DNA of 64,000 bases, taken from the IMG/VR virus record IMGVR_UViG_3300037510_000655; one strand, given 5' to 3'. The DNA comes from a virus. This document shows, piece after piece, positions 33,690-52,912 of this stretch. Positions within the stretch are counted from its first letter, which is position 1. Every line of letters begins with the position of its first letter. The translations under genes and the position numbers were made by a program. The notes beneath the pieces were generated by a model that worked only from the letters and a program-made list of their open reading frames with translations, searched no databases and was not told where the DNA came from.

Positions 33690-33703
33690 TCGAAATGCCC
33701 GTC

Positions 33704-35321: not shown

Positions 35322-35669
35322 CTACGACTGCGCCTTCGGTCCCGGAACCGGCGTGAAAGCTTGCGGCGACTCTTCTCCGTACGCGGCTTCAATGGCCGCG
35401 TAGGTGTCACGCGTCTGGCGCTCCCGGTGCATCATCATGGCGCCGGCCATCTTCCAGGCCGCCCGTGCCACGTCGTCGAACGGGATGCTGAGCGGCTCGC
35501 CCTTCTGCATGGCCGCCATCGTCACGCCAGTCATGAGCTGCGTCATGGCGATGGTGGCGAAGCTGTCGAAGGCCCGCTGGTCGAGGCGCGACTCTTTGTT
35601 GCTCTCGAGCGCCTCGACGGACTCGACAATCTTGTTCAAGAACTCCTGGACGTGCTCGTCGCTCACCAT
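35322..35669 (-). CDS. Hypothetical protein
   Basis: Coupled ORF; DDVARAAWKMAGAMM motif seen in small phage proteins. Confidence 0.5.
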   Translation of the reverse strand: MVSDEHVQEFLNKIVESVEALESNKESRLDQRAFDSFATIAMTQLMTGVTMAAMQKGEPLSIPFDDVARAAWKMAGAMMMHRERQTRDTYAAIEAAYGEESPQAFTPVPGPKAQS

Positions 35670-36604: not shown

Positions 36605-36605
36605 G

Positions 36606-37829
36606 CTACGCTCCCCTCTGCGCCGGCTCCTGGTCGACGACGATGTTCTTGAACGCCTCCCAGCCTCCGCCCGCCTTCATGCCCTCGCTGACGTGCTCGC
36701 GCATCAGCTCGATGTACGTGCGCTCGGGGTTGTCGCCGAGCTTGACCTTGACCTCGGGGTGCTTGCGCGCCAGCTGCTTGGCCACGGCCGCCGCCAGGTG
36801 GTGCGCCTTCCACGCGATGTCGACGGGCACCGGCAGCGAATTGTCGATGCCCGAGGCCGCCTCCGCCACCTTGGCCGCATGCGCCGCCAGCTCGTACACC
36901 TTGACCGCCGGCAGCACCTGCATCGCGAAGCGAGCGACGAAGAGCGCGACCTCGGGCCTGGTCGGGTCGTCCGCCGCCAGCTCCTGCGCGCGCCGGAGCA
37001 GCTCCGCCGGCGTATACACCGCCGTCTCGCGCGCCACGTCGATGTACTGCAGCCGGATGTAGTTGCGCTCGATCTCGTGGCCGGTCGGGATGGCGAGCCT
37101 GCGCAGGTACAGGCCCATCAGCTCGAACGCGTAGCGCATCCGCTCGCGCTCCTCGAAAAACGGGAAGAGAGACTTGTAGCTCTGCGCCAGGAAAGTGAGC
37201 GCGCGCTCGTCCTCGGGGTGCTCCTCCAGGTGCTCGCGCAGGAGCGGGATGTGGCGCTCCCAGATGTTGTTGAAGCGCACCTCGGGATCGGCGACGACGT
37301 GCTCGATGTACGCCCCGGGCACGCCGATGGTCTTGGCGCCGGGCTCGTCGCGATTGACGACGACCTCGTGCAGACCCATCGGCAGCGAGCTGTCGTACTT
37401 CCACTTGCTACCGGTGCGCAGCACGCGCGCCTGGTAGCTGCGGTCGCCCTCGAGCAGGAGCTGCATCCAGTGGCAGTCGACGTCGCTGTCGCGGTGCTGC
37501 TCGAGGTGCTCGCGGAGCTTCTCGCCGTCGCGCAGGTACTCGTCGCCGGAGAGCATGAGTTGGAAGACAGCGTCGTGCGTGACCGCGTCAACACCGAGGG
37601 CGAAATTCCTCGCCTCGTCGTAGCGAAACTCCAGCATCGGCTGCACGACGAGTCGCTTACTGCTCACCCCACCGAACATCTCGCGCACGATGCTCTGCGT
37701 GTCGTCGGTCGAGCCTGTGTCGACAATCGTCGCTCGGTCGACGTGTGGGAGCGCCGCCTCGAGCACGGCCTTGATGTTGGACGCCTCGTTCTTGACGATC
37801 ATCACGAGACTGAGCAAGGGGCGCGTCAT
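36606..37829 (-). CDS. Family 2 glycosyltransferase with a TPR-like C-terminus
   Basis: LSLVMIVKNEA, IVDTGSTDDT, SGDEYL, LHEV, YL-x-QSY helical repeats. Confidence 0.85.
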   Translation of the reverse strand: MTRPLLSLVMIVKNEASNIKAVLEAALPHVDRATIVDTGSTDDTQSIVREMFGGVSSKRLVVQPMLEFRYDEARNFALGVDAVTHDAVFQLMLSGDEYLRDGEKLREHLEQHRDSDVDCHWMQLLLEGDRSYQARVLRTGSKWKYDSSLPMGLHEVVVNRDEPGAKTIGVPGAYIEHVVADPEVRFNNIWERHIPLLREHLEEHPEDERALTFLAQSYKSLFPFFEERERMRYAFELMGLYLRRLAIPTGHEIERNYIRLQYIDVARETAVYTPAELLRRAQELAADDPTRPEVALFVARFAMQVLPAVKVYELAAHAAKVAEAASGIDNSLPVPVDIAWKAHHLAAAVAKQLARKHPEVKVKLGDNPERTYIELMREHVSEGMKAGGGWEAFKNIVVDQEPAQRGA

Positions 37830-38356: not shown

Positions 38357-39457
38357 TCAGCCTTCGAGCTGCTTTTTCTTCATGGTCATGATGAGGGTCA
38401 TGAGCGGCATGAGCTGCTGCGGCGACAAAATGGTCTGCGCGCGGGTGAGCTGGTCACCCTGCACAGCGAGCGGGCCCTCGAAAAGCTGCTCGAGAGCCGC
38501 CGGCTCCATATCACACTGCGCCACGCCGGCGAAAATCTTCGTCTGCTCGGGAGTGAAAACGCCGCCGCCCTTCATATCACCGCTATCGGTGATCTCGCCG
38601 AACAGCTCGACCGCCTGCTGCTTGGACAGGCTGTCGAGGAACGACCTGATCGCCATGCTCTCCGCGGTCTCTTTCGTCGGGATGGTCTGCTTGCCGGTGA
38701 TCTGGTTGACGGCGACGGGCACCATGCCCTTCAAGAAGTTGAAGCCGTCGGACATCATCTGCATCTTGAACTTCTCTTTTTCCGCCGCCAGCTCGCGCTC
38801 CATCTTGTGCGAGAGCGCCTCGTCGGTCTGCTTGACCATGGTGCGGTGCTCCTGCATCAACTCGAGGTTCTGGCGCATCAGCATCCCGGCCAGCGCCTGG
38901 TAGTGCTCGAGGATGCCGCCGGTCGACTTGGCGAACTGCTCCTGCCGCCAGCGCTCGTTGAGGTCGGACTCCTCCATGTGGCGCAGCGAGTACGCCAGGA
39001 GCGAGTCGCGGCGCTTGGCGTCGGGCACGACGTCGTCCAAACCATCACCCTCACCATCTCCCTCGACGTGACGGGCCTTCGGCGACAACTTTTTGTAGTA
39101 AACGGCGTAGTATTTGTCGCTCTTCTGGTGGTTCTTGAAGAGGAAGCCGTAGCCGGTGGTACGCCCCAGCTCGTCGCAGTTGTGCTGCGCCGAGTCCAAG
39201 AACCAGTTGACCAGCTCGCAGATGTCCGAGTGGGATGGAATCGGCGAATTTGCTCGAAATTCCTTGCTGTCGATCGTCGACTCGCTGTACGTACGACCAC
39301 CTTGGCCGTACGCCTGACGAAGCTCGATGATCTGCGGCATGCTCTCGGCACTCATGTGCCGGACGAAGAACTCGAACATGCGGACGTCGGCGGGTTCGGG
39401 AGCTACTGAGGGGCGCTTCTCCAGCTCTTTTTCGCGATCCTTCTCTTTGTCGGCCAT
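38357..39457 (-). CDS. Hypothetical protein with a long coiled coil and hydrophobic C-terminal domain
   Basis: Long ORF with good codon usage; function unknown. Confidence 0.6.
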   Translation of the reverse strand: MADKEKDREKELEKRPSVAPEPADVRMFEFFVRHMSAESMPQIIELRQAYGQGGRTYSESTIDSKEFRANSPIPSHSDICELVNWFLDSAQHNCDELGRTTGYGFLFKNHQKSDKYYAVYYKKLSPKARHVEGDGEGDGLDDVVPDAKRRDSLLAYSLRHMEESDLNERWRQEQFAKSTGGILEHYQALAGMLMRQNLELMQEHRTMVKQTDEALSHKMERELAAEKEKFKMQMMSDGFNFLKGMVPVAVNQITGKQTIPTKETAESMAIRSFLDSLSKQQAVELFGEITDSGDMKGGGVFTPEQTKIFAGVAQCDMEPAALEQLFEGPLAVQGDQLTRAQTILSPQQLMPLMTLIMTMKKKQLEG

Positions 39458-39493
39458 GCTCGCCAACAACTCTCACCGTAAAAAACGGTCATG

Positions 39494-39699: not shown

Positions 39700-39906
39700 T
39701 CACCGTTTCTTGCGACGGCGCATCTTGCGAAGGGTGAGGGCCAGGCGTGCCCGCTTCCCGAGAATTCCGGGAGCGCGGGCGGCCTGACGAAGAAGCGCCA
39801 GGGGGATCCTTTTCTTCCTGGGAACCCCCAGCTGCCGGTGCAGAGACCCCGGCTTGTGCTTTCGGAGCGCCTTCTGAATCCAACGCTTCTTTCCTCGACG
39901 AGGCAT
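39700..39906 (-). CDS. Small highly basic protein (WIQKA..PGSLH..LGVP..IP family)
   Basis: K/R-rich; the motif recalls small basic proteins of large DNA viruses; stop/start coupled. Confidence 0.6.
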   Translation of the reverse strand: MPRRGKKRWIQKALRKHKPGSLHRQLGVPRKKRIPLALLRQAARAPGILGKRARLALTLRKMRRRKKR

Positions 39907-42062
39907 TAGTCGCCCCTGTTGCGAGCCGCCCTCTTCAGGCGGTGCTTGTCCAGCCCGCGCACGTGGCCGAGCACGTCCTCGTTGTCGAGCGAGTATTTGG
40001 CGTCCTCGAACGAGTCCATCGAGTGGTCCCCGCCGTCGTCCGCGTACTCTCCGCCTTCGTCCGACGCGTACTCGCCTCCACCGTCATCGGCCGACGGCAT
40101 CTGACCCGTGGCCTGCGCCTGCATGGCTGCGATGCGGGCCTGCGTCTCCGCCGCCTGCTGCTCGATGCGGGCCTGCGACTCCATGGCCTGTTGGTCGATC
40201 TGCGCCTGCATGAGAGCCTGCGCCTGCATCGTCTGCGTGGCCTGATCCGACTGCCGGGCCTGACCCTCCCAGTCGATCTGCGCCTGGCGGTACGCCTGTT
40301 CATCGGCCATCTGCTGCTGGCTCGCCGTCTGCTGGTCCTGCACCGCCTGCAGCTCGGCCTGGTGAGCCGCCTGAGCCTGCTCCTGCTGCATCTGACGCGC
40401 CATCTGCGCGTCCTCGGCCGCCTGCTGCTTGGCGAGGTCGCGCGCATTCTGCGCGTCGATCTGATCCTGCATCTGCTGCGTCGTGTAGTCCGTCTGCGCA
40501 GCGGTGAACATGGCCTGGTAGTCGAGCAGCGCCTGGTTGTCGCGCTTCATCTTGTCGGCGGCGGTCGCCCAGCTCGGAGCCTTGTCGTAGTACCAGAACC
40601 ACTGATTGCCACCCTGGTCGTAGCGCATGCCGGCGGTCCAGCCACCCTGCGGGTTGCCGATGAGCGGACCCCAGTGGTGCTTCTCGCTGGCCTGCGCCAT
40701 GAACGGCAGGCTCGCGGCCTCCTCTGGCGTCACCGACTGCTTGCGCGTGTCGATGGCGACGTTGTCGTGGTACGCACTGGCCCACCAGCAGTTCCAGTGG
40801 TCCTTGTTCCAGTAGAAGCCCGACCCCGCGTTGCCGTCCGGCTTGGCGCCGCCGGGGATCGTCTTGTGGAAGTACGTGTACGAACCCGCACCCTTGGTCG
40901 GAATCGCCTGCGAGCCGTCGTAGATGACCGCGCCCTCAGGCAGAGGCACGGTGCCAGGCTCGCCCGTCGACGAGTAGACGTTGAAGTCGCTGTCGAAACC
41001 CGGATCCGGGATGTAGTCCTGGTTGGCGACCAGCGGCGGCGCGCCCTTCGGAGCAGGTCCGAGCCCGTAGTCCGGCGGCCCGGGCAGCGCGGTCGCCGTC
41101 TGATCGGCGCCGCTGGTGGCGTACGGGTCGCTGGAGTCGAGCGAACCCGTGTAGCCCGGCGCGACTCCACCGTAGGCAGGATCAGGCGAGCCGTCGAGCA
41201 GGTAGCCCGGGTTGGTCGGATCCGGCAGCGCCGCGCCGAGAATCTCGAGTGCGAGGTCGGTCTCGCTGGCGATGATGTCGAAGTCCTCGTAGTCGTCGCC
41301 CTTGATCTTGGTCGACTTCGACGGGTCCATCTTCTGCGCCACCGACTTCGTGCCCGCCGAGAGCTTGCTCTGCGCGGTCTTCACCAGCTGCTCGTGCTTA
41401 GACGCCGCGGCGACGGTCTTCTTGCCCTTGTCGGCGAGCTTGTCGAGCATCTGACCCATCTTCACAACGACGGTCTTGGGCACACCCTTGGGCGCAACCT
41501 TCTTCGCTGTGGACGTCGCAGCGCCGAAGAAGGCTTCGTCACCGCGGATGACGGTCACCTTCTTGAGGTGGTCCTTCATCTTCGTCGCTGCGCTGATGGC
41601 GCGGTTGCCTGCGTCCTTGGCGTTCTTGATCGACGATTTGTCGTCACCCTGCTTGGGCTTGTTGACGACGAGAGACGTGTGCGTGCGCCCGCCCGGCGTC
41701 TGCTTCTGCACGAAGCCTGCGCGCACCGGCACCGCCACCTTGGCGCCCGACTGCGTCTTGACGGTGGTCGTCAAGTTGGTCGTCTTGGGCTTGATCACGC
41801 TGACCTTGGCCGCACCGAGGACGTCGAGTCCGTGCGAGTAGTCTTCACCGAGAACCTCGATCTCCTCTTCCGGTCGCATGGCTCCTCCTTCTTGGCCGCC
41901 GGAAGTACCGTGCGGCGGGTACGTGACATCCTGCAGGTAGGCCGCGCCCCGATGGACGGAACCGCGGCGGCGCTCGTAGTCCGTGTCTTCGTCGGTGATC
42001 TGACGTTGCCACTGCTCAACAAAGATCTCGTCGTCATCGTCGAAGCTGATGTCGTTGCTCAT
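39906..42062 (-). CDS. Large modular putative virion protein (acidic / Lys-rich / aromatic globular / Gln-rich coil)
   Basis: Segments are delimited by EVLG, YSHGLDVLG, TKIKG, EILG and DVLG motifs. Confidence 0.7.
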   Translation of the reverse strand: MSNDISFDDDDEIFVEQWQRQITDEDTDYERRRGSVHRGAAYLQDVTYPPHGTSGGQEGGAMRPEEEIEVLGEDYSHGLDVLGAAKVSVIKPKTTNLTTTVKTQSGAKVAVPVRAGFVQKQTPGGRTHTSLVVNKPKQGDDKSSIKNAKDAGNRAISAATKMKDHLKKVTVIRGDEAFFGAATSTAKKVAPKGVPKTVVVKMGQMLDKLADKGKKTVAAASKHEQLVKTAQSKLSAGTKSVAQKMDPSKSTKIKGDDYEDFDIIASETDLALEILGAALPDPTNPGYLLDGSPDPAYGGVAPGYTGSLDSSDPYATSGADQTATALPGPPDYGLGPAPKGAPPLVANQDYIPDPGFDSDFNVYSSTGEPGTVPLPEGAVIYDGSQAIPTKGAGSYTYFHKTIPGGAKPDGNAGSGFYWNKDHWNCWWASAYHDNVAIDTRKQSVTPEEAASLPFMAQASEKHHWGPLIGNPQGGWTAGMRYDQGGNQWFWYYDKAPSWATAADKMKRDNQALLDYQAMFTAAQTDYTTQQMQDQIDAQNARDLAKQQAAEDAQMARQMQQEQAQAAHQAELQAVQDQQTASQQQMADEQAYRQAQIDWEGQARQSDQATQTMQAQALMQAQIDQQAMESQARIEQQAAETQARIAAMQAQATGQMPSADDGGGEYASDEGGEYADDGGDHSMDSFEDAKYSLDNEDVLGHVRGLDKHRLKRAARNRGD

Positions 42063-43823
42063 TTACAAGACCTCCAAATCCAGCTCGTCGAGACCGACGA
42101 TGCTCTCGGTGCCGTCGGGGTTGCTGATCACCGCCGCGTCAGGTGCCGCGCTCATATCCTGCAGCGGATCCTGCGCAGTGGGGGCAGCCTGCGAAGATTG
42201 CAGCACAGCCTGCGCGTGCAGACGGTATTGTTGCTGCAGCCGCGCGAGCTTGGCCTTCGACGCGGCGAGCTTGGCGGCGACAGCCGGGCTCGGCTGCCCG
42301 TGAATGACCTTGCTCGACACGTTGCCGATCTGCTTGGCACTCGGATCGTCCGACGCCTGATACGCACGAATGGCGTACCCCGCGGGGTTGAACACGTCGT
42401 ACCACTTGAACTCGACCCCGAGCACGTCCTCAGCCTCGGCGTACGCTTCGGCGTCGTATTCCCCGTCGTCGACCATCTCCGACAACAGCTCGGGGTCGAA
42501 GTCCCCCGCCTCTTGATCGAAGGGATCACCAGCATAGCCGCCACCACCGCCGCCGCCGCTGTCGCTGCTGCCTTCGTCATCCATACCACCGCCTCCGCCT
42601 CCAGAATACCCTCCACCCGCCGTTCCCGGATCGAAACTCGACGACGAGGAAGACGGAGTCGCGGGCGCAGCTGGCGTCGTCGTGTCCGTAGACGTCGGCG
42701 TCGCGGGTGTGGGCGCGGGCGTGGTTGTCGTCGGCGTCGGAGTGCTCGCCGGCGACGATGTGGCGGTCGACGACGGAGCAGAGCGCGGCGGTTGCGTCGC
42801 TGGCGTGTGCACAACAGGTGCGGTCGGCGCCAACGGTCTCACAGTCGCCGGGGGCGGAGCTGGAATCGCCGACTTCGACGCCGTGACCGGTTTTGCAGCC
42901 GCCGGTGGCGTGCGCGTCGCCATCATGCCGAGGAAGTCGAGCCCAGCCATGTACGTCCGCGATGTACTGCCCGGCAACGAGAGCACAACCGCACCCATCA
43001 CTTCTTCGGTGGACGGATCGTAGCTGTTGAGCAGCTCTTTTGCTTCGGCCATACGGTCCGCTTGTGGCTCGCTGGTATACCCGTCGCTGCTGCCGTCTTC
43101 GGCGGCCGCGAACGGATCTTCTTCAGCAACTGCTCCCGCGTCAGCAAAGGGGTCTTCTTCCGCATACGCTCCTTCATCGCTGTAGCCGCTATCAGCAGCG
43201 GCGGCGCCGCCGTCGTCGTCCTCGAACGGATCCCACGTACCCCCACTCTCGCGGAAGCGCTGCACCGCGCTCGTCTGATCCGATGCGCCGTCCTCGAACG
43301 GATCCGGGTAGCTTCCTCCTCCTCCGCCGCCCCCGCCGCCCGTTGGCATGGATCCACCATCAGAGGCCGTTCCCGGGTTGAACGGCAAGCCACCGCCCCC
43401 GGGCGTAGCTCCTGCGGCAGGATTCAGCGCCTGCGTGATGGTCGACGCTGCTGCGTTCGCTGCGTCGGTGGCCTGCTGCGCCTGCTGCATCCACGCCGTC
43501 GCGTCAGTTCCCGACGTCATGGCCGCGCCCTGCTGCGCAATGTTGAGCGCGTTCTGCCCGGCAGTCTGCGCCGCCTGCGCCTGCGCAGTGAGTCCGTAGG
43601 CGATGGCCGTGTTCGCAGCGTTGATCGCCGCCTGCCCTGCGGTCTGCACCGCGGTGAGCTTGGCCTTGAACACGTCGCTCCCTACCGTCGTGTGGGTTGC
43701 ACCACTCGTGTCGATGGTGGCACTGACGCCGGCCGCCTGCACACGTGCAATCCACGAGTTCGCCGCCGAAGCGAGGCTCGCGATCTGGTCGTCCCACGTA
43801 TTGCCGAGGATGGTATGGCGCAT
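42063..43823 (-). CDS. Large modular putative virion protein (Ala-rich helix, Gly/acidic and Pro/Thr linkers)
   Basis: TILG, EVMG, YMAGLDFLG, DVLG, VIHG, IVGLD; DPF repeats. Confidence 0.7.
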   Translation of the reverse strand: MRHTILGNTWDDQIASLASAANSWIARVQAAGVSATIDTSGATHTTVGSDVFKAKLTAVQTAGQAAINAANTAIAYGLTAQAQAAQTAGQNALNIAQQGAAMTSGTDATAWMQQAQQATDAANAAASTITQALNPAAGATPGGGGLPFNPGTASDGGSMPTGGGGGGGGGSYPDPFEDGASDQTSAVQRFRESGGTWDPFEDDDGGAAAADSGYSDEGAYAEEDPFADAGAVAEEDPFAAAEDGSSDGYTSEPQADRMAEAKELLNSYDPSTEEVMGAVVLSLPGSTSRTYMAGLDFLGMMATRTPPAAAKPVTASKSAIPAPPPATVRPLAPTAPVVHTPATQPPRSAPSSTATSSPASTPTPTTTTPAPTPATPTSTDTTTPAAPATPSSSSSSFDPGTAGGGYSGGGGGGMDDEGSSDSGGGGGGGYAGDPFDQEAGDFDPELLSEMVDDGEYDAEAYAEAEDVLGVEFKWYDVFNPAGYAIRAYQASDDPSAKQIGNVSSKVIHGQPSPAVAAKLAASKAKLARLQQQYRLHAQAVLQSSQAAPTAQDPLQDMSAAPDAAVISNPDGTESIVGLDELDLEVL

Positions 43824-43825
43824 CT

Positions 43826-44443
43826 TTACATGCTCCCGCCGCCGGTCATCGACCGCTGCATCTGATCGAGCGTGATGATGATGTAGTTGGCTGCATTCAC
43901 CATCGTCTCGCCCTCGTGCGCCAAATCCGACTTACCTGCGGTGTAGAGCTTGTCGACGATGGGCAGGATCTGCGTTGCGATGTCCCCGGCCTGCGCCATC
44001 TGATCAGTGATGCCCGAGTCCGCGGAAACGTCATTGACCGCGGTGTCATCACCGAGCACCTCAGCCATGCCCTTGATCTTCGTCGCCTTCGTCGTCAGGT
44101 TCGACGCGTGCTTCTTCAGAAGCCCGCTCATGTTCTTCGCCAGCGGGTGCTTGAACTTCGCCAGCTTCGCCGCCGTCGCGTTGGCGTGCTTGGCAGCGGA
44201 CGCGGCGCGCAGTTGCGTCGACTTCTTCACTTCCGTCGAGACCTTGGCCGGCGTCTTCGGGGTCGTAGCAGGCTTGGGCGTCGAGGTTGTCTTCGCGGCC
44301 GCGGACTTGGCCGCAGGCGCGGGGCGCGTGACGACCGGGCGGCCGGAAGCAAGAGCCTGCTGAGCAGCCTGCGCTGCCGTCAGCTTGCGTGGCAGCACCG
44401 CAACAGCACCGAGAACGTCGAGACCCGAGTAGTAGCTCTTCAT
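43826..44443 (-). CDS. Putative core protein with a Lys/Ala-rich segment
   Basis: Starts MKSYYSGLDVLG; basic segment ends TKIKGMAEVLG; ATGA overlap with the upstream gene. Confidence 0.65.
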   Translation of the reverse strand: MKSYYSGLDVLGAVAVLPRKLTAAQAAQQALASGRPVVTRPAPAAKSAAAKTTSTPKPATTPKTPAKVSTEVKKSTQLRAASAAKHANATAAKLAKFKHPLAKNMSGLLKKHASNLTTKATKIKGMAEVLGDDTAVNDVSADSGITDQMAQAGDIATQILPIVDKLYTAGKSDLAHEGETMVNAANYIIITLDQMQRSMTGGGSM

Positions 44444-45555
44444 CGCGTTTTCCTCAGCAGCTCGAGAGCACCGACGACGGCGACGGTCCTCAAACCTTTG
44501 TTCGCATGTCCCTGCCGCACCATATCCGCCGGAGCGAAGCCGGCATACTTGGCGTACTCCTGCGCCGTCGCGCCGTCGCCAGTGCGCAGCGCCTGACGGT
44601 ACACGCTTCCGAGCTGATGCATGCGATTCTGCTGCTCGGGCACCCAAAAATCTGTCGCGCCTCGCGTCGGGTCGAAATCACTGTCAGCACCCAGCACTGC
44701 AGCGGCCACAGCGTTGGCTCGCGGGCTCGCTGCCCTGCGGGTCGAAGCGAAGCCTCCGGTCTCGCGCGCGGAACCGTACCTGCCCGCGGGCGCGAGCAGC
44801 TCCTGCATGGACTTGCCCTCCGCGAGTGCGCGGTTGCGCATCACCCACCCCGCGGCGTGCTGCTCCTCGACGGGTCGGCCGCCTAGCTCGCTTTCGATGG
44901 CTCGCGCCAGCACATCTCGATTGACCTCGCCGTCGAGTCCCAGCACCACGCTCTGATCGCGGATCCCCGTGGTGGCTACGGCCTTGCCCTTCTCAAAATT
45001 GTCACCCGCGATGATGCGCGCCGTCGTTCCCGACTTCGGCACTGCCGTCTTGGAGCTGTCGACGCAGATGTCGAGAGGCTCGCGACCGAGCGCGCGGTAC
45101 ACTTTGCCGGCGCCGCGGAAATGCCCGCCCGTGTCCACGACACGGAACACGGCTCGTGGCCAGGCGCTGATCTCCAGGCGCTGCCCGTACGGCCACACCG
45201 CATCGTCGCCTGACACCGCGACGTAGGGGTGCGCCACCGGATCAGTCAGGTGCTGCTCGAGCGTGTGCAGCTTGTTGCCTCGGCGATCGTTGAGCCCGCC
45301 CTCCATCTTGCGCTCTTCGTCGGTGGCGGTGAACGGCCAGTAGCCGGTGAGGCGCACGTCAATGACGCCCTTCTTCGGATCCGAGAAGTCGCCCGTCGCG
45401 CCTCCACCGCCGAACTGGCCGGTGTCCTTCACCGCTTCGCGGATGAACTCGACGGTCTCCTGGCTCCTGCGCGAGGCCCACCACACAGCGCCGAGCGCGA
45501 GCCCGCCGCCGCCGATAAGGAACCCCGCACCGATGTATGCCGTCTTCCGCTTCAC
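44440..45555 (-). CDS. Membrane-anchored two-domain muralytic enzyme (3D/RlpA-like plus SleB/Hydrolase_2-like)
   Basis: N-terminal TM; LTGYWP..VAVSGD..YGQRLEI..VVDTGG..LDICV (3D domain); LARAIESE..AAGWVMRNR..DPTRGATDF (SleB-like). Confidence 0.7.
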   Translation of the reverse strand: MKRKTAYIGAGFLIGGGGLALGAVWWASRRSQETVEFIREAVKDTGQFGGGGATGDFSDPKKGVIDVRLTGYWPFTATDEERKMEGGLNDRRGNKLHTLEQHLTDPVAHPYVAVSGDDAVWPYGQRLEISAWPRAVFRVVDTGGHFRGAGKVYRALGREPLDICVDSSKTAVPKSGTTARIIAGDNFEKGKAVATTGIRDQSVVLGLDGEVNRDVLARAIESELGGRPVEEQHAAGWVMRNRALAEGKSMQELLAPAGRYGSARETGGFASTRRAASPRANAVAAAVLGADSDFDPTRGATDFWVPEQQNRMHQLGSVYRQALRTGDGATAQEYAKYAGFAPADMVRQGHANKGLRTVAVVGALELLRKTR

Positions 45556-45556
45556 G

Positions 45557-46165
45557 TCAGCCTCTCAGCAGCGTGCGTGCCGCCACCTGTCCCGTCGGAC
45601 CGGATGCGATCTTGTAGAGCCCGTAGCCGATGAGTCCGACGCCGGCGACAGCCAGAGCGATGGTCCACTTCGCAGCAGTGTTGACGTCGTCGACGGTGCC
45701 CTTCACACTCTTCGCCGCTGCCGATGCCGCTGCCTTCACATCGTCCCACTTGACCGAGCCATCGAGCGTGCCCTCGAGCGCGTTGACGAGCTTACTGCCG
45801 TCGATGACGTAGCTCTCCAACTCGCTCCAGTACGGGCACGGGTTGCTGTCGAGGGGCAGCGCGCTGATCTTCGGTCCCAGTGCATTGGCACGTGCCGCGA
45901 ACGCCATCACCTGATCGTGTAGCGGAAACTCGTTCGTTGGCAGCACCGCCTTGGCGATGATGTCCTGCGCATCTTGGGTCGCTCTCGCGGCAAGATCATA
46001 GCCGTGCGCGGCCCAGATGCGGCGAGCCGTGTCGTTGTCGTGCGGCAATTCCGCGAGCCGGTCGATGAGGCCGTCGACATCAACGGCACCGAAGACCTCC
46101 CCAACCGGCTCGCGGGCGAGCGGGCGCGAGGAGAGCGCATCGAGCCCGATCATGTAGTTGCGCAT
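45557..46165 (-). CDS. Tail-anchored membrane protein
   Basis: N-terminal YMIGLDAL and EVFG; C-terminal TM WTIALAVAGVGLIGYGLYK. Confidence 0.65.
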   Translation of the reverse strand: MRNYMIGLDALSSRPLAREPVGEVFGAVDVDGLIDRLAELPHDNDTARRIWAAHGYDLAARATQDAQDIIAKAVLPTNEFPLHDQVMAFAARANALGPKISALPLDSNPCPYWSELESYVIDGSKLVNALEGTLDGSVKWDDVKAAASAAAKSVKGTVDDVNTAAKWTIALAVAGVGLIGYGLYKIASGPTGQVAARTLLRG

Positions 46166-46572
46166 CACTTCTTCCCTCCGGTGCCTCGACTGCCGATTCG
46201 ATAGACCCCGTATCCGACAGCCGCTGCGCCGAGTGCCCCCAGGCCGATCATCCACCACGGGATGCTCGCCTTCGTCACGACTCTGCGCTCCACCATCGGC
46301 AGCGCACGAACCACGGCCCCCTTCGGCGTCACCTCGACCGTCGCTGATTGCGGACCGCCCTTGGCTCGTTCTTGTACGAGCTGAGTGTCCGCCGCCTTCG
46401 ACTGCCAGTCGGTAACGGCCTGCTGCTCGACGGGTGTCAACGCGCGGTTGAGATCCGCGAGCTGATCCGGCGACAGCGGACCGTACTCGGCGCCGTAGTC
46501 GCTGGCCGGGTTGGCTACTGCCGATTTGCTCGGCACCGAAGCTCCCAGCAGGTATGGTGCGAGGTGGCGCAT
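46165..46572 (-). CDS. Tail-anchored membrane protein
   Basis: YLLG near the N-terminus; C-terminal TM WWMIGLGALGAAAVGYGVYR plus basic tail. Confidence 0.65.
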   Translation of the reverse strand: MRHLAPYLLGASVPSKSAVANPASDYGAEYGPLSPDQLADLNRALTPVEQQAVTDWQSKAADTQLVQERAKGGPQSATVEVTPKGAVVRALPMVERRVVTKASIPWWMIGLGALGAAAVGYGVYRIGSRGTGGKK

Positions 46573-47060
46573 TACCGCGACTTCACCTTGTGCCACCAGT
46601 CCTGCTCGTTGGTGCCGTCGACGTTGGCGGCGACGATGGTGCCGACCACCATCGCGCCGATGAAGCCGAGCACCGGGTGCTTCTTCATCTTGAGCGAGCC
46701 AAGAACTGCCGCGCCGGTGACCGCCGCCGACACGGCCGCCTTCTTGTACTCGCCGTGGCGCAGGTTGTCCCACGCGATGTTGGCCGCCGCCGAGCCGGCG
46801 AGGAAGCCGAGCACCTTGTGCTTCTTCCACATCGTGTAGCCGACGCCGCCGCCGACTGCCGTCGGGACGAGACCGCCGAGCGCCGTGGCAACGGTGGCCG
46901 AGCGATCCCTCTTCGGAGCGGGCATGGACGTGCCGTCACCCAGCACGCGGATGTCGCCCATCGGCGGGGTGAGCGCCGCAACGATGTCGGCGACGTGCTT
47001 GGCCCCGGCGCTCATGGGTGACGCCGCCCCGAAGATCTCGATCTGGTCTTTCACGCTCAT
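46572..47060 (-). CDS. Multi-TM Gly-rich membrane protein
   Basis: EIFG and RVLG; 3-4 Gly/Ala-rich hydrophobic helices; repeat KKHKVLGF / KKHPVLGF. Confidence 0.65.
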   Translation of the reverse strand: MSVKDQIEIFGAASPMSAGAKHVADIVAALTPPMGDIRVLGDGTSMPAPKRDRSATVATALGGLVPTAVGGGVGYTMWKKHKVLGFLAGSAAANIAWDNLRHGEYKKAAVSAAVTGAAVLGSLKMKKHPVLGFIGAMVVGTIVAANVDGTNEQDWWHKVKSR

Positions 47061-47064
47061 GTTC

Positions 47065-47631
47065 TTACTTTCTCCCTCGCAGCAGCTTGTACGTCAGAAA
47101 ACCCCCGCCGATGACTGCGACACCGCCGAGAGCGTACATCAACCAGGACATGTCGGAACCGCCACCGCTGCGCGTCTTCTTCCCCTTCTCCGAGTCGACG
47201 ACGGCAAGACCCGTCGACGGCGAGAAGTACGCCAGCTTGGACATCGCCGACTTGGCCGCCACAGCAGCGAGGTCGGCCAGCTTCTTCTTGTCAGAGGCGA
47301 CCTTGTGCAGCGGCCCGTTGGGGTCCTGCTCGACGGCATTGGCCTTATCAGCGGCCTCCTGCGCGTCGATGGCGGCCATGGCAGCGGCCTTCTTCGCAGC
47401 GTCGGCGGCCTGCTGCGCCTGCAGCTGCTCGGGCGTCGGAGCAGCGGCCTTCTTCGCTGCGGCCGCGCTCTTCTTGGCCTCCTCCGACGCCTGGTACTGC
47501 GCCGCGAGTCCGCCGCCCGTCTTGGCCAGCTCGGCGACGGCGCTCGAGATGAGCGACGTGGTGTCGCTGTCGCCCGCCAGAGCATCGAGACCCTGCTTGT
47601 ACGCGATCTTGTGTCGCCGGATGGTGCTCAT
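47065..47631 (-). CDS. Tail-anchored membrane protein with an Ala/Lys-rich coil
   Basis: YKQGLDALAG; C-terminal TM plus KLLRGRK. Confidence 0.65.
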   Translation of the reverse strand: MSTIRRHKIAYKQGLDALAGDSDTTSLISSAVAELAKTGGGLAAQYQASEEAKKSAAAAKKAAAPTPEQLQAQQAADAAKKAAAMAAIDAQEAADKANAVEQDPNGPLHKVASDKKKLADLAAVAAKSAMSKLAYFSPSTGLAVVDSEKGKKTRSGGGSDMSWLMYALGGVAVIGGGFLTYKLLRGRK

Positions 47632-47948
47632 CACTTTCTCCTCGCGAGCAAATACGCCCCTGTGCCGACCACGGTGAGCCCGAGGAATCCGAAGAGGACG
47701 AGCTGCATGGTGCGCGCCTTGGCCTCGGCTGCCTCCTTGGCGCGCCGCACCTTCTCCTCCTCGAGCGCCTTCTTGATGGCCGCGGCTTGCGCTTCCTGCG
47801 CCGCCTTCTTGTCCTTATCACCGCCGCCGGTGAGCGCCCCCGCCGCCGAGGACACGACGTTGAGCCACGGCACGAAGTCGCCGAGACCGACGCCGAGCAC
47901 GTCACCGTGGACCTGGATCTTCGGAATTCTTGTCCTCAACCGGCTCAT
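47631..47948 (-). CDS. Small tail-anchored membrane protein
   Basis: IQVHGDVLG; C-terminal TM plus ARRK. Confidence 0.65.
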   Translation of the reverse strand: MSRLRTRIPKIQVHGDVLGVGLGDFVPWLNVVSSAAGALTGGGDKDKKAAQEAQAAAIKKALEEEKVRRAKEAAEAKARTMQLVLFGFLGLTVVGTGAYLLARRK

Positions 47949-48301
47949 TTCTTGTGGTGCCTCCCGACGACGAAGTGGTAGATGAGCGCGAAGAAACCGA
48001 TGACACCACCGATCGCCACCGCACCCACCACCGCGTCGTGAGCGAGGTGGCTGTTCGTCGGCGACTTGAAGTTCTTCGGTTCGACGACGCTAACATCCGC
48101 GTCGACGTTGTTCGCTTTCAGGCTCTCGACGAGCTTGGCTTTCATCTCGTCGTAGACCTTGGCCTCGACGGTGCCGGGCACGAGAGCGGCAGCCAAGGTA
48201 CCGAGAGCACCCTGCGAGCGCGCCAGCTCCGCTGCGTTGCGCACACGGATGAGGATGGCGCGATTGGTGGCCTGGTCAGCTCCAAACACAGTACGCCGCA
48301 T
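47945..48301 (-). CDS. Small tail-anchored membrane protein
   Basis: TVFG at the N-terminus; C-terminal TM plus RHHKK. Confidence 0.65.
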   Translation of the reverse strand: MRRTVFGADQATNRAILIRVRNAAELARSQGALGTLAAALVPGTVEAKVYDEMKAKLVESLKANNVDADVSVVEPKNFKSPTNSHLAHDAVVGAVAIGGVIGFFALIYHFVVGRHHKK

Positions 48302-49329
48302 CAGATCCCCAGCTCGTAGATGATACGCCCGCCGAGATTGGCCGACGGAATGATGAAGAGCGACACCGCATCCGTCGTCAACGGAAACGGCGCAGTCATT
48401 GGCGCAGCCGCGGTGAAGGTTGTCGTGTACAGCGAGTTCGTGTTGCTGGCGAGCACCGCGACTTCAACCGTGGCCGGCGGCGGATCGTTCACCAAAAACC
48501 GAAAATTCTTGGCAAACGCCGGGATGGCATAGGTGGTAGATACGGTAGAATCCAACACCTGCGTGCAGGTGACCGGTGCCGTACGCACGCACGGATAGAA
48601 CGAGAGCATGGCGCCGAGCTTCATCGTCATGGTGCCAGTAACACCTAGCACACGACGCACACCGACCTGTGCGGTGACATAGCTCGCGTTCACTGTGAGC
48701 TGCATGCCCTTGCCGATATCGATTTCGGCCTGGGCGAGCGCCGCCCGCGTGCCCCACTTCAAAATCATATATGGCGACGCAGCTCCGTTGCCGAACGTTG
48801 CCGCATTTGCGATTTGCTCGACAGGGAACCCGGTAACCGTGACCGGCAACGTCTCCTCGTCCTCGCCGCCCCAGTTCACCGTCTGAATCGGAGCGACGTC
48901 AGTCGAGTTGACGATCTGGTACCCGCCGAGAACACCCTGCATGACCGATGGCGGGTTGATGCGCGCGAACTTTGCAACGTCCGCGAGCCCCTTCCAACCG
49001 TGGTTGCGCAGCTCGACCTTCTGCACGAGCCCGTCGGCGTTGTTGAACTTCTGCGCGATGAAGTCGGCCTGCTCCAGCTTGTCACCCTGAAACACCCGCT
49101 CCTCGCCCTCGATGGCCTCGGCCTCCTGCTCGGCGCCGCGAACGATTTCTTCAGCAGCTTCATCGGTGGCGCGATCGAGCGCCGCGGCCTGCATCAGACG
49201 CTTCTGCTGAATACCGATCGCGCGCAACTTCCGCAGCTCGGCGATGGCCAGCTTGTCGCCCTTGGCGGCGCGCTCCTTCAGCTTCTGCACGAAGGCCAGA
49301 GGACCCGTCTTGGCGCTCACTTGAACCAC
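48301..49329 (-). CDS. Protein with a C-terminal all-beta region (candidate penton / minor jelly-roll capsid protein)
   Basis: Helical N-terminus ending GVLG, then ~200 aa of alternating beta strands (GMQLTVNASYV, YAIPAFAKNF, RIIYELGI). Confidence 0.5.
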   Translation of the reverse strand: MVQVSAKTGPLAFVQKLKERAAKGDKLAIAELRKLRAIGIQQKRLMQAAALDRATDEAAEEIVRGAEQEAEAIEGEERVFQGDKLEQADFIAQKFNNADGLVQKVELRNHGWKGLADVAKFARINPPSVMQGVLGGYQIVNSTDVAPIQTVNWGGEDEETLPVTVTGFPVEQIANAATFGNGAASPYMILKWGTRAALAQAEIDIGKGMQLTVNASYVTAQVGVRRVLGVTGTMTMKLGAMLSFYPCVRTAPVTCTQVLDSTVSTTYAIPAFAKNFRFLVNDPPPATVEVAVLASNTNSLYTTTFTAAAPMTAPFPLTTDAVSLFIIPSANLGGRIIYELGI

Positions 49330-50306
49330 CTCGCGATACGTTCGAACAGCGACGGCTTGTCTGCCGCCACGCGACGATCAACCTCAGCGAGCAGCGGCGC
49401 CGCAACGCGCTGACCGTCGCCCCACTTGGAGGCTGCGCGCAGCATCAGCATCTCCCGCCGCGCCTGCGGGTGCCCTGCGTCGGCCATCTTCTGCACGTGA
49501 ACGAGGGCATTCAATGGTGCCGTACCCTGCGTGCCGGCGCTCACGGCCAGCACCGGGCCGTTACCCATGCCCAGCACCTCGTCACGAGCGTGGTTGCGCC
49601 ACGCCCAGCCGGCGATGTCACGCGCGAGTCGACGACCCGTAGCCGTGTACACCCCGGTCGCGACTGCACCGAGCACGTCTTCAGAGACGGCAGGCATGCG
49701 CGGCCGAGACGCCGCCGTCGCCACTCGCGGCGTACCGTCCGCCGCGGCGAAGCACACGGCCACCACGACGCAGTTGCCGTCGAGCCAGCAACGCACGTTG
49801 CCCTGCGCGTAGTCGGGCAGCCCAAGAGGCACCTCAGGCAGCGCATTCAGCGCCTCGCCGGGCGTGCGTGCCGCCTCGAGAGCCTGCACCCCTAGAATGT
49901 CCGCTCGCGATGCGGCGTGCATCTTACCGCCCTCGTGCGTGTGCGGGTGCGCGAACGGGTCAGCCTCATGCGCTGCGAAAGCCGCTTCCACACGACTCAG
50001 CCTCCGCTCGATCTCTCGAGCTGCTGCGTCGCTGACGAGGTCGGGAAACGACTGCGTGGTATCGACGCGCACCAGTCGCGGCGGGCGTTCAGCGGCCGCG
50101 TACTGACGCAGCGCCTCGGTGAACACAGGGAACGCGCTCTCCGTCGCCGGGTGCAGCTCCTGCGAGGGCGCGTCGTCCCCAGCGAAGAGGTACTCTGCCT
50201 CGTCCGCCGTCATGTTCGCCTCATCACGCGATGCGTAGTCGAACTCGGAGGGATCGCCCGCGCCGCCGACCGGCATACGACCGAAGACGATGTCTTCGTC
50301 ATCCAT
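49317..50306 (-). CDS. Hypothetical putative virion protein
   Basis: IVFG, DILG, DVLG and EVLG motifs; C-terminal amphipathic LFERIARWFK. Confidence 0.6.
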   Translation of the reverse strand: MDDEDIVFGRMPVGGAGDPSEFDYASRDEANMTADEAEYLFAGDDAPSQELHPATESAFPVFTEALRQYAAAERPPRLVRVDTTQSFPDLVSDAAAREIERRLSRVEAAFAAHEADPFAHPHTHEGGKMHAASRADILGVQALEAARTPGEALNALPEVPLGLPDYAQGNVRCWLDGNCVVVAVCFAAADGTPRVATAASRPRMPAVSEDVLGAVATGVYTATGRRLARDIAGWAWRNHARDEVLGMGNGPVLAVSAGTQGTAPLNALVHVQKMADAGHPQARREMLMLRAASKWGDGQRVAAPLLAEVDRRVAADKPSLFERIARWFK

Positions 50307-50917
50307 CAGAACACCTCGTTGACGCGCTCGACCAGCTCGACCGTGCCGGGGAAGCGCTCGCCGTTTGCCCAAATCTCCGCACCCTTCGGACCGCAGCGGT
50401 GGAGCACCGCCAGCATACCCGACAGCGTCAGTTCCTCGGGAGGATCGATCTCACCCGTCTCGATGCGGCGCACGTAGTCGCGCATCGACTGGCAGAACAC
50501 TTGGTACTGCGCCCGCACGCTGCGCAAGAATGCGCGCGGCGTGAGCGGCTCGACGAACTTGCCCACCCAAATCGTGCGTCGCTTGCCGCTCGGCGCCTCA
50601 CGGTAGGCCCGCTGGAGCGTGCTGGCGTCGACGTATCCGAAGTCCGCCAGCCGGCGCGGCGACAGCTCGAACATGCCGAGCGCATTGGAGTCGGACACGG
50701 AGTCGAGCGGCGCCGTCATCATGCGGCGCACGAAATCGGTCCACTTGTCGTCGCTGACGCCCTCGACCTCGCTCACGAGCAGCACCTCGTCGGAGAGATC
50801 GTCGCCGCGGGCCACGTCGGACTCGGCGTAGCCGATGACGTCGCTCTTGACCTCCTCGAGCCGCTCTCGTGCGGCGAGCGCGTCGAGAGCGCGCAGGTAC
50901 TTGTCCGAGACCTTCAA
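50306..50917 (-). CDS. Lysozyme-like fold protein (candidate virion muralytic enzyme)
   Basis: SNALGMF..RLADFG..FL-x-S..Q..F..LTLSGMLAVLHRCGPKG..W resembles lysozyme-like phage domains; YLRALDALA and DVIG in the leader. Confidence 0.55.
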   Translation of the reverse strand: MKVSDKYLRALDALAARERLEEVKSDVIGYAESDVARGDDLSDEVLLVSEVEGVSDDKWTDFVRRMMTAPLDSVSDSNALGMFELSPRRLADFGYVDASTLQRAYREAPSGKRRTIWVGKFVEPLTPRAFLRSVRAQYQVFCQSMRDYVRRIETGEIDPPEELTLSGMLAVLHRCGPKGAEIWANGERFPGTVELVERVNEVF

Positions 50918-51693
50918 CCGAGCCTCCGCATCTGCTTCTTCAGCTCGCGCTCGAACTTGCGCTGCGTACCTCGCGTCGGGATCTGACTGCCGAGCACCGT
51001 CGTGAAGCTCGGAAGACCGTGAACCTTGGTGGCGCGGCGCTCGCGGTTGCGGCGAGTGATCGCGCCGAAGACGTCAGTGGAGGCAGTGAGCCCGCCACCG
51101 AGCACCTTCAGGAACTCGGCGCAGCGCTCCCCGAGCTTGCGCTCCTCCTCGCGGCGGTCTGCGGCGCGCGCTTCGCCACCCATACCGAGCAGTAGCGACG
51201 GATCCTCGGAGCTACCATCGGGCCACAGCACGATGACGTGGTAGGTATAGCCGCCGTCGGGGCGCTGCCTCCACGTGATGTACGGCTTGGCGTCGATGCC
51301 TAACTCGCGCAGCTCCGCGGCGCGCCAGCTGGCAACGTTGTCGCAGTCGCCGCCACCATTCTCGATGATGCGCGGGATCTCCCGGAAGTGCTCGCCACCG
51401 CCGCACATGTCCGAGAGCGCCTTGAAGGCGCGCATGACATCGTCTCCGGCGCCCTTGCTCTTGAGGAACTTGCCGACGGTGTCGATCTCCGGCAACTTCT
51501 CCTTCTCGAACTGCGCCGGCACCTTGTACTTGATGCCCGACTTGTAGATGAGCGGTGTATCGGGATGCTGCTGCAGGTAGAGACGATTGCACCAAACGAG
51601 CGCTTCGAGAAGGCAGAGCACGCGCTTCTGCGAATTGGCGCGGTCAGCCTCGTCGGCGAAGAACTCAACGTCGAAGAGGATGTGTCGGAGCAA
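50914..51693 (-). CDS. Transglutaminase-like (papain-fold) cysteine protease, candidate maturation protease
   Basis: GDCDNVA..AAEL (Cys), YHVIV (His), EDPS (Asp) in the canonical order; C-terminal tail carries KVLG, DVFG, TKVHG and TVLG. Confidence 0.7.
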   Translation of the reverse strand: MLRHILFDVEFFADEADRANSQKRVLCLLEALVWCNRLYLQQHPDTPLIYKSGIKYKVPAQFEKEKLPEIDTVGKFLKSKGAGDDVMRAFKALSDMCGGGEHFREIPRIIENGGGDCDNVASWRAAELRELGIDAKPYITWRQRPDGGYTYHVIVLWPDGSSEDPSLLLGMGGEARAADRREEERKLGERCAEFLKVLGGGLTASTDVFGAITRRNRERRATKVHGLPSFTTVLGSQIPTRGTQRKFERELKKQMRRLG

Positions 51694-51788
51694 CGCTACT
51701 CTCCTTTGTAGAAAAGCCGCGCTCCTCGTTTAACAAGCGAAGAGCGCGGCTTCCCGGACTACCTAACTACTACCGCGTCCGTCCCTAA

Positions 51789-52361
51789 TTACAGGACGGT
51801 GTGGCCGATGATCGAGGCCGACCAGGTCAGCGTCGCCGACGTGGTATTCTGAATCTGCCACGTGATGAACAGTGCGGGATCACACGTATCGAGCATCAGC
51901 TCGTTGTCCAGCACGGTGCCGGCGAAGACCGCCATCGCGATCGGGTTCTGGAAGGTCGGCAGCTGCGACTTCTGCCCGACGAACAGACCCTGGATGAAGA
52001 GGCCGGTCACGTCGCCCGAGTTGACCAGCTTCTCGCCGCGGAAGAGGCACTGCGGCTGAGCCTGCACGGTCACGGTCGACAGCGGCGGAATGGCGGTGGG
52101 GCCGAAGCCCACGACCCACCGGCGCTTCTTGGTCGGCTGGACCTTCTGCACGACGGGCGCGCGACGGGCCAGCTTGTTGGCGAGGGCGGCCTGGAACGTC
52201 GGGCTGCCCTTGATCCGGCTCGAGGCGAGCGCGGCGGCGCCCAGGATCTCCTCGTGCCCCAGGATCTCCTCGTGACCGAGATACTCGGCCATCAGCTCCT
52301 GGTCGCGCGACTGGCCCTGAAGGCCGTGAATGAAGATATCGTCGTCATCACCGTAGCTCAT
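51789..52361 (-). CDS. Candidate single jelly-roll major capsid protein with an acidic propeptide
   Basis: C-terminal ~110 aa splits into 8 alternating beta strands; N-terminal acidic leader with EYLG-HEEILG-HEEILG, then a basic amphipathic helix. Confidence 0.6.
   Translation of the reverse strand: MSYGDDDDIFIHGLQGQSRDQELMAEYLGHEEILGHEEILGAAALASSRIKGSPTFQAALANKLARRAPVVQKVQPTKKRRWVVGFGPTAIPPLSTVTVQAQPQCLFRGEKLVNSGDVTGLFIQGLFVGQKSQLPTFQNPIAMAVFAGTVLDNELMLDTCDPALFITWQIQNTTSATLTWSASIIGHTVL
52241..52274. repeat. In-frame 18-bp-period tandem duplication encoding HEEILG twice
   Basis: CCAGGATCTCCTCGTG at 52241 and 52259. Confidence 0.85.
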
Positions 52362-52423
52362 GTTGCTTTCTCCGTTTCGCGCCTACCCGCAGGTGACGCT
52401 TCGTTTTTGGTTTTCCCCGTCGA

Positions 52424-52912
52424 TCAACCGGCGTTGGCGAGTCGATCGAGCTGCGCGGCCGAGAGGAAGTCCCCGTGGGGGGCCTTCGGAATCTCGCCGA
52501 GGATCGTCGACCCCGGAACCGCCGCCTTGACCTTCGGGATGTCGCCCTTCTTGACCATGACGCGGGCAACGCCGCTGTGCTGCGACCCGCGGCCCGCGCC
52601 GAGGGTGTGGCAGAACGCACCGATGCCGGCCAGGCCGACCATCTTGGTGGCGTGCGACAGACCACCGACGACGCCGCCGACCCCGTACCAGTCCCCGAGA
52701 AACGACAGAGCGGTGAAGCCAATGCCCGCCGCCAGGTCCGCCGGCACGCCCTTGATGTGGGCCTTCTCGCGGTAGCGATTCATCAGGTACCCGTACCCGA
52801 AGGAAGCGCCGCCGAACACAGCCGCATCGACAGCCGTGCGCGAGAGAGCGTGCGTGAACGAACCCTTTCGCCCGAGGGAAAGCTTGTCCAAGTAATTCGC
52901 CATCTCGAACAT
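52424..52912 (-). CDS. Gly-rich multi-TM membrane protein, first gene of the structural operon
   Basis: GGAG RBS; hydrophobic helices; AVFG, HIKG and TILG. Confidence 0.6.
   Translation of the reverse strand: MFEMANYLDKLSLGRKGSFTHALSRTAVDAAVFGGASFGYGYLMNRYREKAHIKGVPADLAAGIGFTALSFLGDWYGVGGVVGGLSHATKMVGLAGIGAFCHTLGAGRGSQHSGVARVMVKKGDIPKVKAAVPGSTILGEIPKAPHGDFLSAAQLDRLANAG

Follow-up and report, generated by a model that had tools for sequence, protein, structure and literature searches.

We examined a 64,000-nt stretch of IMG/VR virus record IMGVR_UViG_3300037510_000655 (hereafter the window; all but ~34 kb of a ~98-kb contig), calling genes from the codon-position guanine-plus-cytosine (GC) content of this 63% GC sequence. 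Its most distinctive region is a block at 39906-52912 of 15 co-oriented minus-strand open reading frames (ORFs; 4262 amino acids, aa), in which a short peptide motif, [D/E]-[V/I]-[L/F/M/I]-G, recurs around a gene for a transglutaminase-like cysteine peptidase candidate; the 77 further window ORFs (14130 aa) mark the sequence as that of an uncultured and undescribed virus of bacteria. The block is probably the particle-assembly module of an uncultured bacterial-virus lineage. From its first gene onward, and with the presumed scissile bond marked ↓, it is composed as follows, together with one gene just beyond it.

52424-52912, minus strand: conserved 162-aa protein, first gene of the block, with a near-strict S-T-I-L-G↓E-I-P near its C terminus (52487-52513).
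51789-52361, minus strand: 190-aa protein with an acidic N-terminal propeptide, tandem E-E-I-L-G/H-E-E-I-L-G (52239-52271), a basic helix and a beta-rich C-terminal domain.
50914-51693, minus strand: 259-aa transglutaminase-like cysteine peptidase candidate, with a core at residues 1-195 and a disordered tail.
50306-50917, minus strand: 203-aa protein, role unassigned, whose single strict site, S-D-V-I-G (P1 residue 29), lacks conservation among orthologs.
49317-50372, minus strand: 351-aa protein with IVFG↓RM (50280-50291), DILG↓V (49890-49901), DVLG↓A (49668-49679) and EVLG↓M (49569-49580).
48301-49329, minus strand: 342-aa candidate major capsid protein, with an N-terminal helical extension, a disordered hinge (61-82) and two jelly-roll-like beta domains (134-246, 247-342).
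45557-48301, minus strand: five small proteins (118, 105, 189, 162 and 233 aa), four with a C-terminal membrane helix predicted from hydrophobicity of the translations.
44440-45555, minus strand: 371-aa protein with an N-terminal membrane helix and relaxed motif matches only.
43826-44443, minus strand: Lys-rich 206-aa protein, probable start ATG at 44443, with leader MKSYYSGLDVLG↓A and a second site AEVLG↓D.
42063-43823, minus strand: 586-aa low-complexity acidic protein whose domain boundaries carry MRHTILG↓N, EEVMG↓A, GLDFLG↓M and EDVLG↓V.
39906-42062, minus strand: 718-aa polyprotein-like protein with an acidic head ending EIEVLG↓E...GLDVLG↓A and later sites LEILG↓A and EDVLG↓H.
38357-39469, minus strand: 370-aa protein just outside the block, without a strict motif, part of the conserved module.

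The strict motif occurs 18 times in 10 block proteins, exactly the count that an initial annotation of this DNA had given approximately, whereas within-protein shuffles (n = 2000) predict 0.75 ± 0.86. The non-block ORFs hold four strict matches vs 2.4 expected, which is chance level; the annotation had put the outside count at about three, missing a fourth match, EIMG, in an ATPase gene (55131-56036). An unbiased k-mer scan of the block arrives at the same peptide: VLG appears 19 times vs 2.0 expected, in nine proteins, and DVLG six times vs 0.13, and these are the top block k-mers apart from low-complexity GGG, with nothing comparable outside. Composition, paralogy among small proteins, low complexity or a nucleotide repeat might generate such an excess as a by-product, and some matches do lie in paralogous small membrane proteins, while one site pair in the 190-aa gene stems from an 18-nt in-frame duplication. 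This explanation is nevertheless scarcely credible: composition-keeping shuffles never exceeded 6 matches, each of the 23 other orderings of the four residue classes gives at most 4 where [DE][VI][LFMI]G gives 18, and the enrichment is replicated at 49-67% GC in unrelated protein families. Moreover, 17 of the 18 block sites are encoded by distinct 12-nt codon strings; because these strings differ between sites, the motif is not a DNA repeat and selection acts at the peptide level. The peptide signature claimed at the outset is thus genuine, its enrichment in the block confirmed by shuffles, k-mer scan and order permutation alike.

Bias extends beyond the four motif positions (numbered back from the presumed cut as P1, P2 and so on, with P1' following it). 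Ala occupies P1' in 33 of 69 sites, and acidic, Gly and Tyr residues are favored at P5, P6 and P9, respectively. Papain-type enzymes have an S2 pocket that prefers a hydrophobic residue, which Leu or Phe at P2 would fit. Two other roles for the motif were considered and discarded: it has no Ser, Thr or Asn and so is not a glycosylation sequon, and it has no Gln or Lys and so is not a classical transglutaminase cross-link site. Two small ORFs beyond the block carry strict matches, D-E-D-V-L-G-G at 62189-62422 (plus strand) and H-E-I-L-G-E at 28224-28547 (minus strand); these could be additional substrates encoded away from the block or could have arisen by chance.

The enzyme candidate contains Cys117 in G-D-C-D-N (51343-51345), His152 in Y-H-V (51238-51240) and Asp164 in E-D-P-S (51202-51204), catalytic-type residues that are invariant in an alignment of 28 homologs (A1). 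An AlphaFold model (predicted local distance difference test, pLDDT, 78.7) places Cys117 at the start of helix 117-130 and His152 in the following strand, 149-156, and leaves the tail disordered; the order of Cys at a helix N terminus, His in a beta strand and then Asp is that of the transglutaminase-like superfamily. The best cluster in the AlphaFold database is a transglutaminase-like domain protein (E = 7.6e-10, probability 1.0, template-modelling score by hit 0.78), most further rows bear the same name, and the best Protein Data Bank (PDB) matches are transglutaminase-like cysteine peptidases (Z scores of 7.2 for 3kd4, 6.2 for PeiP, 6.0 for PeiW, 5.4 for TglA and 4.7 for LapG). Invariant residues, model and fold matches agree with the Cys-His-Asp triad that the initial annotation had read from this ORF. 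Pfam Transglut_core (PF01841) scores the window enzyme at 15.2 bits (E = 0.027, in a later low-stringency scan), under the gathering cut-off of 23, and matches 11 of the 28 homologs weakly and likewise under the cut-off (best E = 4.6e-5); on these sequence scores the enzyme is a divergent branch, not a curated member. A comparison of the enzyme-family profile with PDB sequences gave nothing meaningful. No block protein matches a Pfam or PHROG prohead-protease family, the conserved residues being Cys, His and Asp and not a Ser-His pair, and no adenain or Ulp1 structure is among the enzyme's fold matches. The residue order, the transglutaminase-like fold and the lack of family matches together place the enzyme in neither the prohead-protease nor the adenain family.

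The enzyme also carries the motif. Its own tail has KVLG (51097-51108), DVFG (51064-51075) and TVLG (50989-51000), as had been noticed before, and in the unalignable tails of its homologs [VI][LF]G occurs 40 times vs 4.0 ± 2.0 expected, a roughly 10-fold enrichment. The family comprises 167 metagenomic homologs, and a profile search extends it to 2119 representative metagenomic clusters, among them a class of ~145-aa proteins consisting of the catalytic domain alone; two distant homologs were left out since their contigs were too short. Although broad in metagenomes, the family has no relatives in IMG/VR or among deposited phages: protein and alignment queries found none in IMG/VR or in 185,579 prokaryotic species genomes, so that there is no prophage and no host clue, and neither the enzyme nor the capsid candidate has a tblastn match in 50,697 deposited phage genomes. 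Inteins (PF14890) lie near the catalytic Cys region in some homologs (P0028, P0072), which suggests that the enzyme is essential and highly conserved.

Outside the window, five syntenic relative loci (L001-L005, on metagenomic contigs of 61-345 kb and 49-67% GC) have 8, 8, 17, 8 and 11 strict matches in their blocks against ~0.75 expected, and 0-2 in non-block genes. In ortholog regions that otherwise vary, the glycines of the motif form some of the few invariant columns, and the expectation that motif position would be kept in homologs is borne out for the 190-aa, 351-aa and 162-aa proteins, the leaders and the capsid-candidate extensions. The most conserved candidate substrate is the 190-aa protein, which is always immediately upstream of the enzyme; E32, I33, G35, E38 and G41 are invariant amid a variable N terminus (alignment A3), and the orthologs in the five loci have two or three tandem E-E-I-L-G-like copies at about residues 20-45 (three in L001). 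The 351-aa protein, a candidate scaffold or core protein that is predicted to be cut into five pieces, has G31, G161 and G235 invariant in six orthologs (alignment A4), with the fourth site kept in four of the six. Orthologs of the 162-aa protein in L001, L002 and L005 show [ST]-[LIV]-L-G↓[EA]-I-P at the corresponding position.

Leaders ending in the motif characterize the small proteins: MRRTVFG↓A, ...HGDVLG↓V, MSVKDQIEIFG↓A and MRNYMIGLDALS↓S ... GEVFG↓A in the window, and 5- to 12-residue leaders ending [VI][LFI]G↓[AVM] in the orthologs of the small membrane proteins. The longest-ORF starts of 43826-44647 and 45557-46258 are probably wrong; starts at 44443 (overlapping the upstream stop by 4 nt) and 46165 yield the N termini MKSYYSGLDVLG and MRNYMIGLDALS, which match the relatives' leader type. 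A longer leader, (M)xNYxxG[LC]DVLG↓A, recurs in L001, L003 and L005 at the N termini of several unrelated, larger proteins. Small membrane proteins of the window (46572-47060, minus strand) and of L001, L003, L004 and L005 also have K-K-H-[PR]-[VI]-L-G just before hydrophobic segments, at most twice per protein; as this element does not have the acidic P4, it may have a structural role instead of being cleaved.

The piece of the 206-aa protein between its two sites (residues 14-132) has a net charge of +20. In the 718-aa protein the acidic head gives way to a basic segment (84-276, net +18) that closes with LEILG↓A; a globular region containing a Gln-rich coiled coil comes next, and EDVLG↓H then precedes a basic tail. 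Overall, the sites fall in leaders, at propeptide/core junctions and in low-pLDDT linkers. At the very end of the block, a 68-aa ORF at 39700-39906 (minus strand) has a net charge of +27 and contains P-G-I-L-G↓K-R; its coding status is uncertain (GC at third codon positions, 0.71), and by loose analogy with adenovirus mu/VII it may be a DNA-condensing core protein.

Two shorter contigs carry a minimal form of the system that looks ancestral. L011, a contig of 13.5 kb, encodes a protein-primed family-B polymerase (PF03175) and a minimal, tail-less enzyme of the ~145-aa class (E = 7e-40), together with same-order homologs of the 162-aa protein, the 190-aa protein (E = 2.5e-15), the 370-aa protein (L011 8402-9211; phmmer E = 1.3e-20) and, weakly, the capsid candidate (E = 9e-5). 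Its 190-aa ortholog has five tandem motif copies at the N terminus, and no other late protein of L011 has the motif. L010, a 2.4-kb fragment, has the same gene pair, with a single D-E-I-L-G at residues 8-12 of the 190-aa ortholog followed by a tail-less enzyme; the A3 profile finds both loci by hmmsearch at E ~2e-15, and 162-aa homologs lie upstream of the enzyme in both. As both contigs keep this pair, the enzyme and one adjacent substrate form the conserved core of the system, and the motif appears to have spread through the module in large genomes. Upstream of the L011 polymerase, 1559-2422 (plus strand) encodes 287 aa, the first ~130 of which are nearly all Lys/Ala/Val/Thr repeats; its product may be a terminal protein or a DNA-binding protein.

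We propose that the enzyme is, more probably than not, a papain-type (Cys-His-Asp) transglutaminase-like maturation endopeptidase that cuts after the Gly of [D/E]-[V/I]-[L/F/M]-G, before a small residue that is usually Ala. From sequence we infer that the sites are cleaved, that the bond broken follows the Gly and that the product of 50914-51693 breaks it. Maturation would then remove short N-terminal leaders, which may also be targeting signals, from membrane and internal proteins, the acidic propeptide from the 190-aa protein and the N-terminal helical extension from the capsid candidate; it would cut the 351-aa scaffold-like protein four times, free Lys-rich segments of the 206-, 586- and 718-aa proteins and let the enzyme trim its own tail. 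Very basic products would result from the 718-aa protein (residues 84-276) and the 206-aa protein (residues 14-132), and the 68-aa ORF is possibly another.

Several observations weigh against this proposal. The window's capsid candidate has only degenerate hinge sites (EEIVRG, AIEG, VFQG). Protease sites are typically shorter than the Y-x-x-G-L-D-V-L-G leader, which could act chiefly in docking. The motif might accordingly direct proteins, uncut, into the assembling particle or membrane through a scaffold or capsid protein that binds it, in the manner of a capsid-targeting sequence; its presence in this long form at the very N terminus of several unrelated proteins, and its confinement to the assembly module, would be expected of such a signal. 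Many sites are, however, internal, tandem or C-terminal, including the four in the 351-aa protein and the three in the enzyme tail, and an invariant Gly followed by a small residue, placed in disordered linkers, is typical of protease sites. We therefore consider docking as the main function unlikely. The two roles are not mutually exclusive, since in T4, another phage with proteolytic maturation (by gp21), N-terminal targeting leaders of ~10 residues end at the cleavage site, so that leader and site coincide.

The identity of the protease is the second point of doubt. The enzyme's fold matches are moderate (PDB Z ≤7.2), and the phage pseudomurein endoisopeptidases PeiP and PeiW, which act on cell walls, are among its closest solved folds, so that it could be a lysin. 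With ~34 kb of the contig outside the window, the sites could be cut by another protease, encoded there or by the host, and the enzyme could be a virion cell-wall isopeptidase, lysin or cross-linker that is itself a substrate. This arrangement seems improbable to us: the module has a separate lysin candidate (44440-45555) and the window an Amidase_2 protein, the residues joined by transglutaminases are missing from the motif, and the enzyme lies directly downstream of the motif-bearing 190-aa gene on contigs from 13.5 kb to 345 kb. No other conserved peptidase was seen in any flank examined, and the ~50 window ORFs scanned and the precomputed Pfam matches of the relatives' flanks contain no other peptidase family save one weak, non-conserved M10. 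The lysin candidate itself shows a weak SleB-like cell-wall hydrolase signal far under the cut-off (NCBIfam TIGR02869, E = 0.019), and relatives have PG_binding_1 proteins at the equivalent place.

The capsid candidate bears on the kind of virus in which the proposed maturation peptidase would act. Its model (pLDDT 76) has PDB matches spanning both beta domains only among double-jelly-roll capsid proteins and comovirus large coat proteins, at middling Z scores of 6.6-7.5 and root-mean-square deviations of 6-7 Å: phiCjT23 (Z 7.5 over 181 aa), P3 of PRD1/PR772 (Z 6.7-6.8 over 192-196 aa) and FLiP (Z 6.6). Capsid-candidate orthologs carry DEVLG, EDIVG, PDILG, DDILG or EEVFG at the end of a variable N-terminal extension; the L002 ortholog has neither extension nor motif. 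A conserved Q-G-x-L-G-G at the start of the beta domain (48919-48942) was considered as a cleavage site and set aside, as it may be structural instead; the L011 ortholog begins almost directly there. Profile-profile comparison found no relation between the capsid candidate and the 190-aa protein.

No portal, terminase, HK97 or tail-tube family was found in the window ORFs scanned or in the precomputed Pfam matches of five 20-kb flanks, and a walk along L004 came upon a replication module (VapE primase-helicase and a PolA-like protein); the stretch covered had neither a portal nor a terminase nor a capsid family. Together with the capsid fold matches, the small membrane proteins and the small relative's protein-primed polymerase, this makes a tailless, PRD1-like virus the likeliest reading, and one that we hold to be somewhat better than even. 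The automatic taxonomy, which labels some Atlas clusters Uroviricota, counts against it. As in PRD1-type viruses, there is a run of small membrane proteins, and a protein-primed family-B polymerase, as in the small relative, is a PRD1-type hallmark; the capsid candidate aligns over both beta domains, at the middling scores given above, with the capsid proteins of Tectiviridae, FLiP and phiCjT23. PRD1-type genomes are, by contrast, 9-19 kb, whereas the contigs here are 61-345 kb, and a FtsK/HerA-type packaging ATPase was not identified within the 64-kb window, the only ATPase near the block being RadA/KaiC-like. Should the long contigs represent complete viral genomes, and their capsid be of the double-jelly-roll type, they would far exceed the genome of any described PRD1-like bacterial virus. 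The three contigs L002 (345 kb), L001 (160 kb) and L003 (117 kb) also encode RF-1, DksA, RRM_1 proteins, a 2-oxoglutarate (2OG)-Fe(II) oxygenase and NlpC/P60. We know of no maturation protease in Tectiviridae, FLiP or phiCjT23, and our literature search found none for PRD1-type membrane-containing viruses and nothing on a transglutaminase-like virion protease or on the present lineage.

Viral maturation by proteolysis at a short consensus is known from tailed phages and herpesviruses, with serine enzymes, and from eukaryotic double-jelly-roll viruses, with clan CE cysteine enzymes. The initial annotation overstated the case in holding that no bacterial virus matures proteolytically on such a scale, since at least 19 head proteins each are cut by the prohead protease in PhiKZ and 201phi2-1 (PMC10052503). 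The gp245 protease of SPN3US cuts after Glu at a short motif, present in several copies inside propeptides, and cleaves itself (PMC10052503). The system predicted here from sequence resembles these prohead proteases (PhiKZ gp175 and those of 201phi2-1 and SPN3US) in having one viral enzyme, a short consensus, mostly N-terminal propeptides, multiple copies and self-cleavage (PMC10052503), but theirs are assemblin/gp21-type serine enzymes, which cleave on the C-terminal side of Glu in tailed phages of the HK97 fold, whereas the present enzyme has Cys-His-Asp and a presumed P1 Gly.

Another parallel lies with the adenovirus protease AVP (adenain), which cuts at sites such as IVGL↓G and M-R-G-G and releases basic DNA-binding core proteins (PMC4246237), and with the Ulp1-type proteases that are a hallmark of eukaryotic double-jelly-roll viruses (PMC11161782). 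AVP and the Ulp1-like proteases of polintons, virophages, African swine fever virus (ASFV) and poxviruses are likewise cysteine enzymes that mature numerous precursors of capsid and core, at sites where Gly occupies or adjoins the cut and a hydrophobic residue lies upstream, in viruses with a double-jelly-roll capsid; the basic pieces predicted here recall the adenovirus core precursors freed by AVP (PMC4246237). Unlike these clan CE enzymes, in which His precedes Cys, the present candidate has the order Cys...His...Asp, a transglutaminase-like fold and a bacterial host; the resemblance is analogy, not homology.

Among transglutaminase-like proteins with a Cys-His-Asp fold, LapG (Z 4.7) is a sequence-specific endopeptidase at small residues. 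It differs from the enzyme in being periplasmic and calcium-dependent with a single adhesin substrate, and the two share no sequence-family match and have unrelated genomic contexts.

Novelty would thus lie not in the scale of processing but in the class of enzyme, in Gly as the P1 residue and in a lineage that is probably tailless and PRD1-like. If the proposal is right, transglutaminase-like cysteine peptidases would be a third, unrelated enzyme class in viral maturation, a lineage of PRD1-like bacterial viruses would gain its first candidate maturation protease, and the sites of this enzyme would have converged with those of adenovirus, ASFV and poxviruses (Gly at the cut, hydrophobic residue upstream). 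The motif would also become a sequence-only route to virion proteins and their mature ends in a lineage that has no representation in Pfam, PHROGs, IMG/VR or the deposited genomes of phages. More tentatively, and with the odds in our view slightly against so broad a claim, a widespread membrane-containing PRD1-like lineage of bacterial viruses, ranging from 13-kb genomes with a protein-primed polymerase to 60-345-kb contigs, might have independently evolved adenovirus-style global maturation by a transglutaminase-like Gly-cutting peptidase, beginning with one enzyme and one adjacent substrate and spreading the site as genomes grew.

In the block, Pfam gave no significant match for the 16 ORFs scanned (the 15 called and one in an alternative frame). 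Besides the Transglut_core match described above, the only weak block match was DUF1206 (45557-46258), also far under its curated cut-off, and a PHROG scan of 13 block ORFs gave a single weak match, to a functionally uncharacterized family (E = 4.5e-4). The features elsewhere in the window include the following.

2592-5885, plus strand: ribonucleotide reductase with a LAGLIDADG intein, found in the window scan.

The window also encodes a dCTP deaminase, a sigma-70 factor, a tyrosine recombinase, the Amidase_2 lysin, several glycosyltransferases, the RadA/KaiC-like ATPase and a NosD-like beta-helix protein. Extension of the window's own contig by exact-protein look-ups found short duplicate contigs only, which lengthened it by a DHFR gene at its left end and by small ORFs at its right end. 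Directly downstream of the block, 29551-37829 (minus strand) includes GT2 glycosyltransferase genes (33704-35410, 36606-37829) and an FkbM-type methyltransferase gene (32024-32725), a cluster that suggests glycosylated virion or host-surface components. The NosD-like protein (25526-27829, minus strand; 767 aa) shares ~30% identity, across 93% of its length, with a "tail protein" of the Sinorhizobium phages phiM12, phiM7, phiM19 and phiN3; it may act as a receptor-binding depolymerase, and the match weakly hints at an alphaproteobacterial host.

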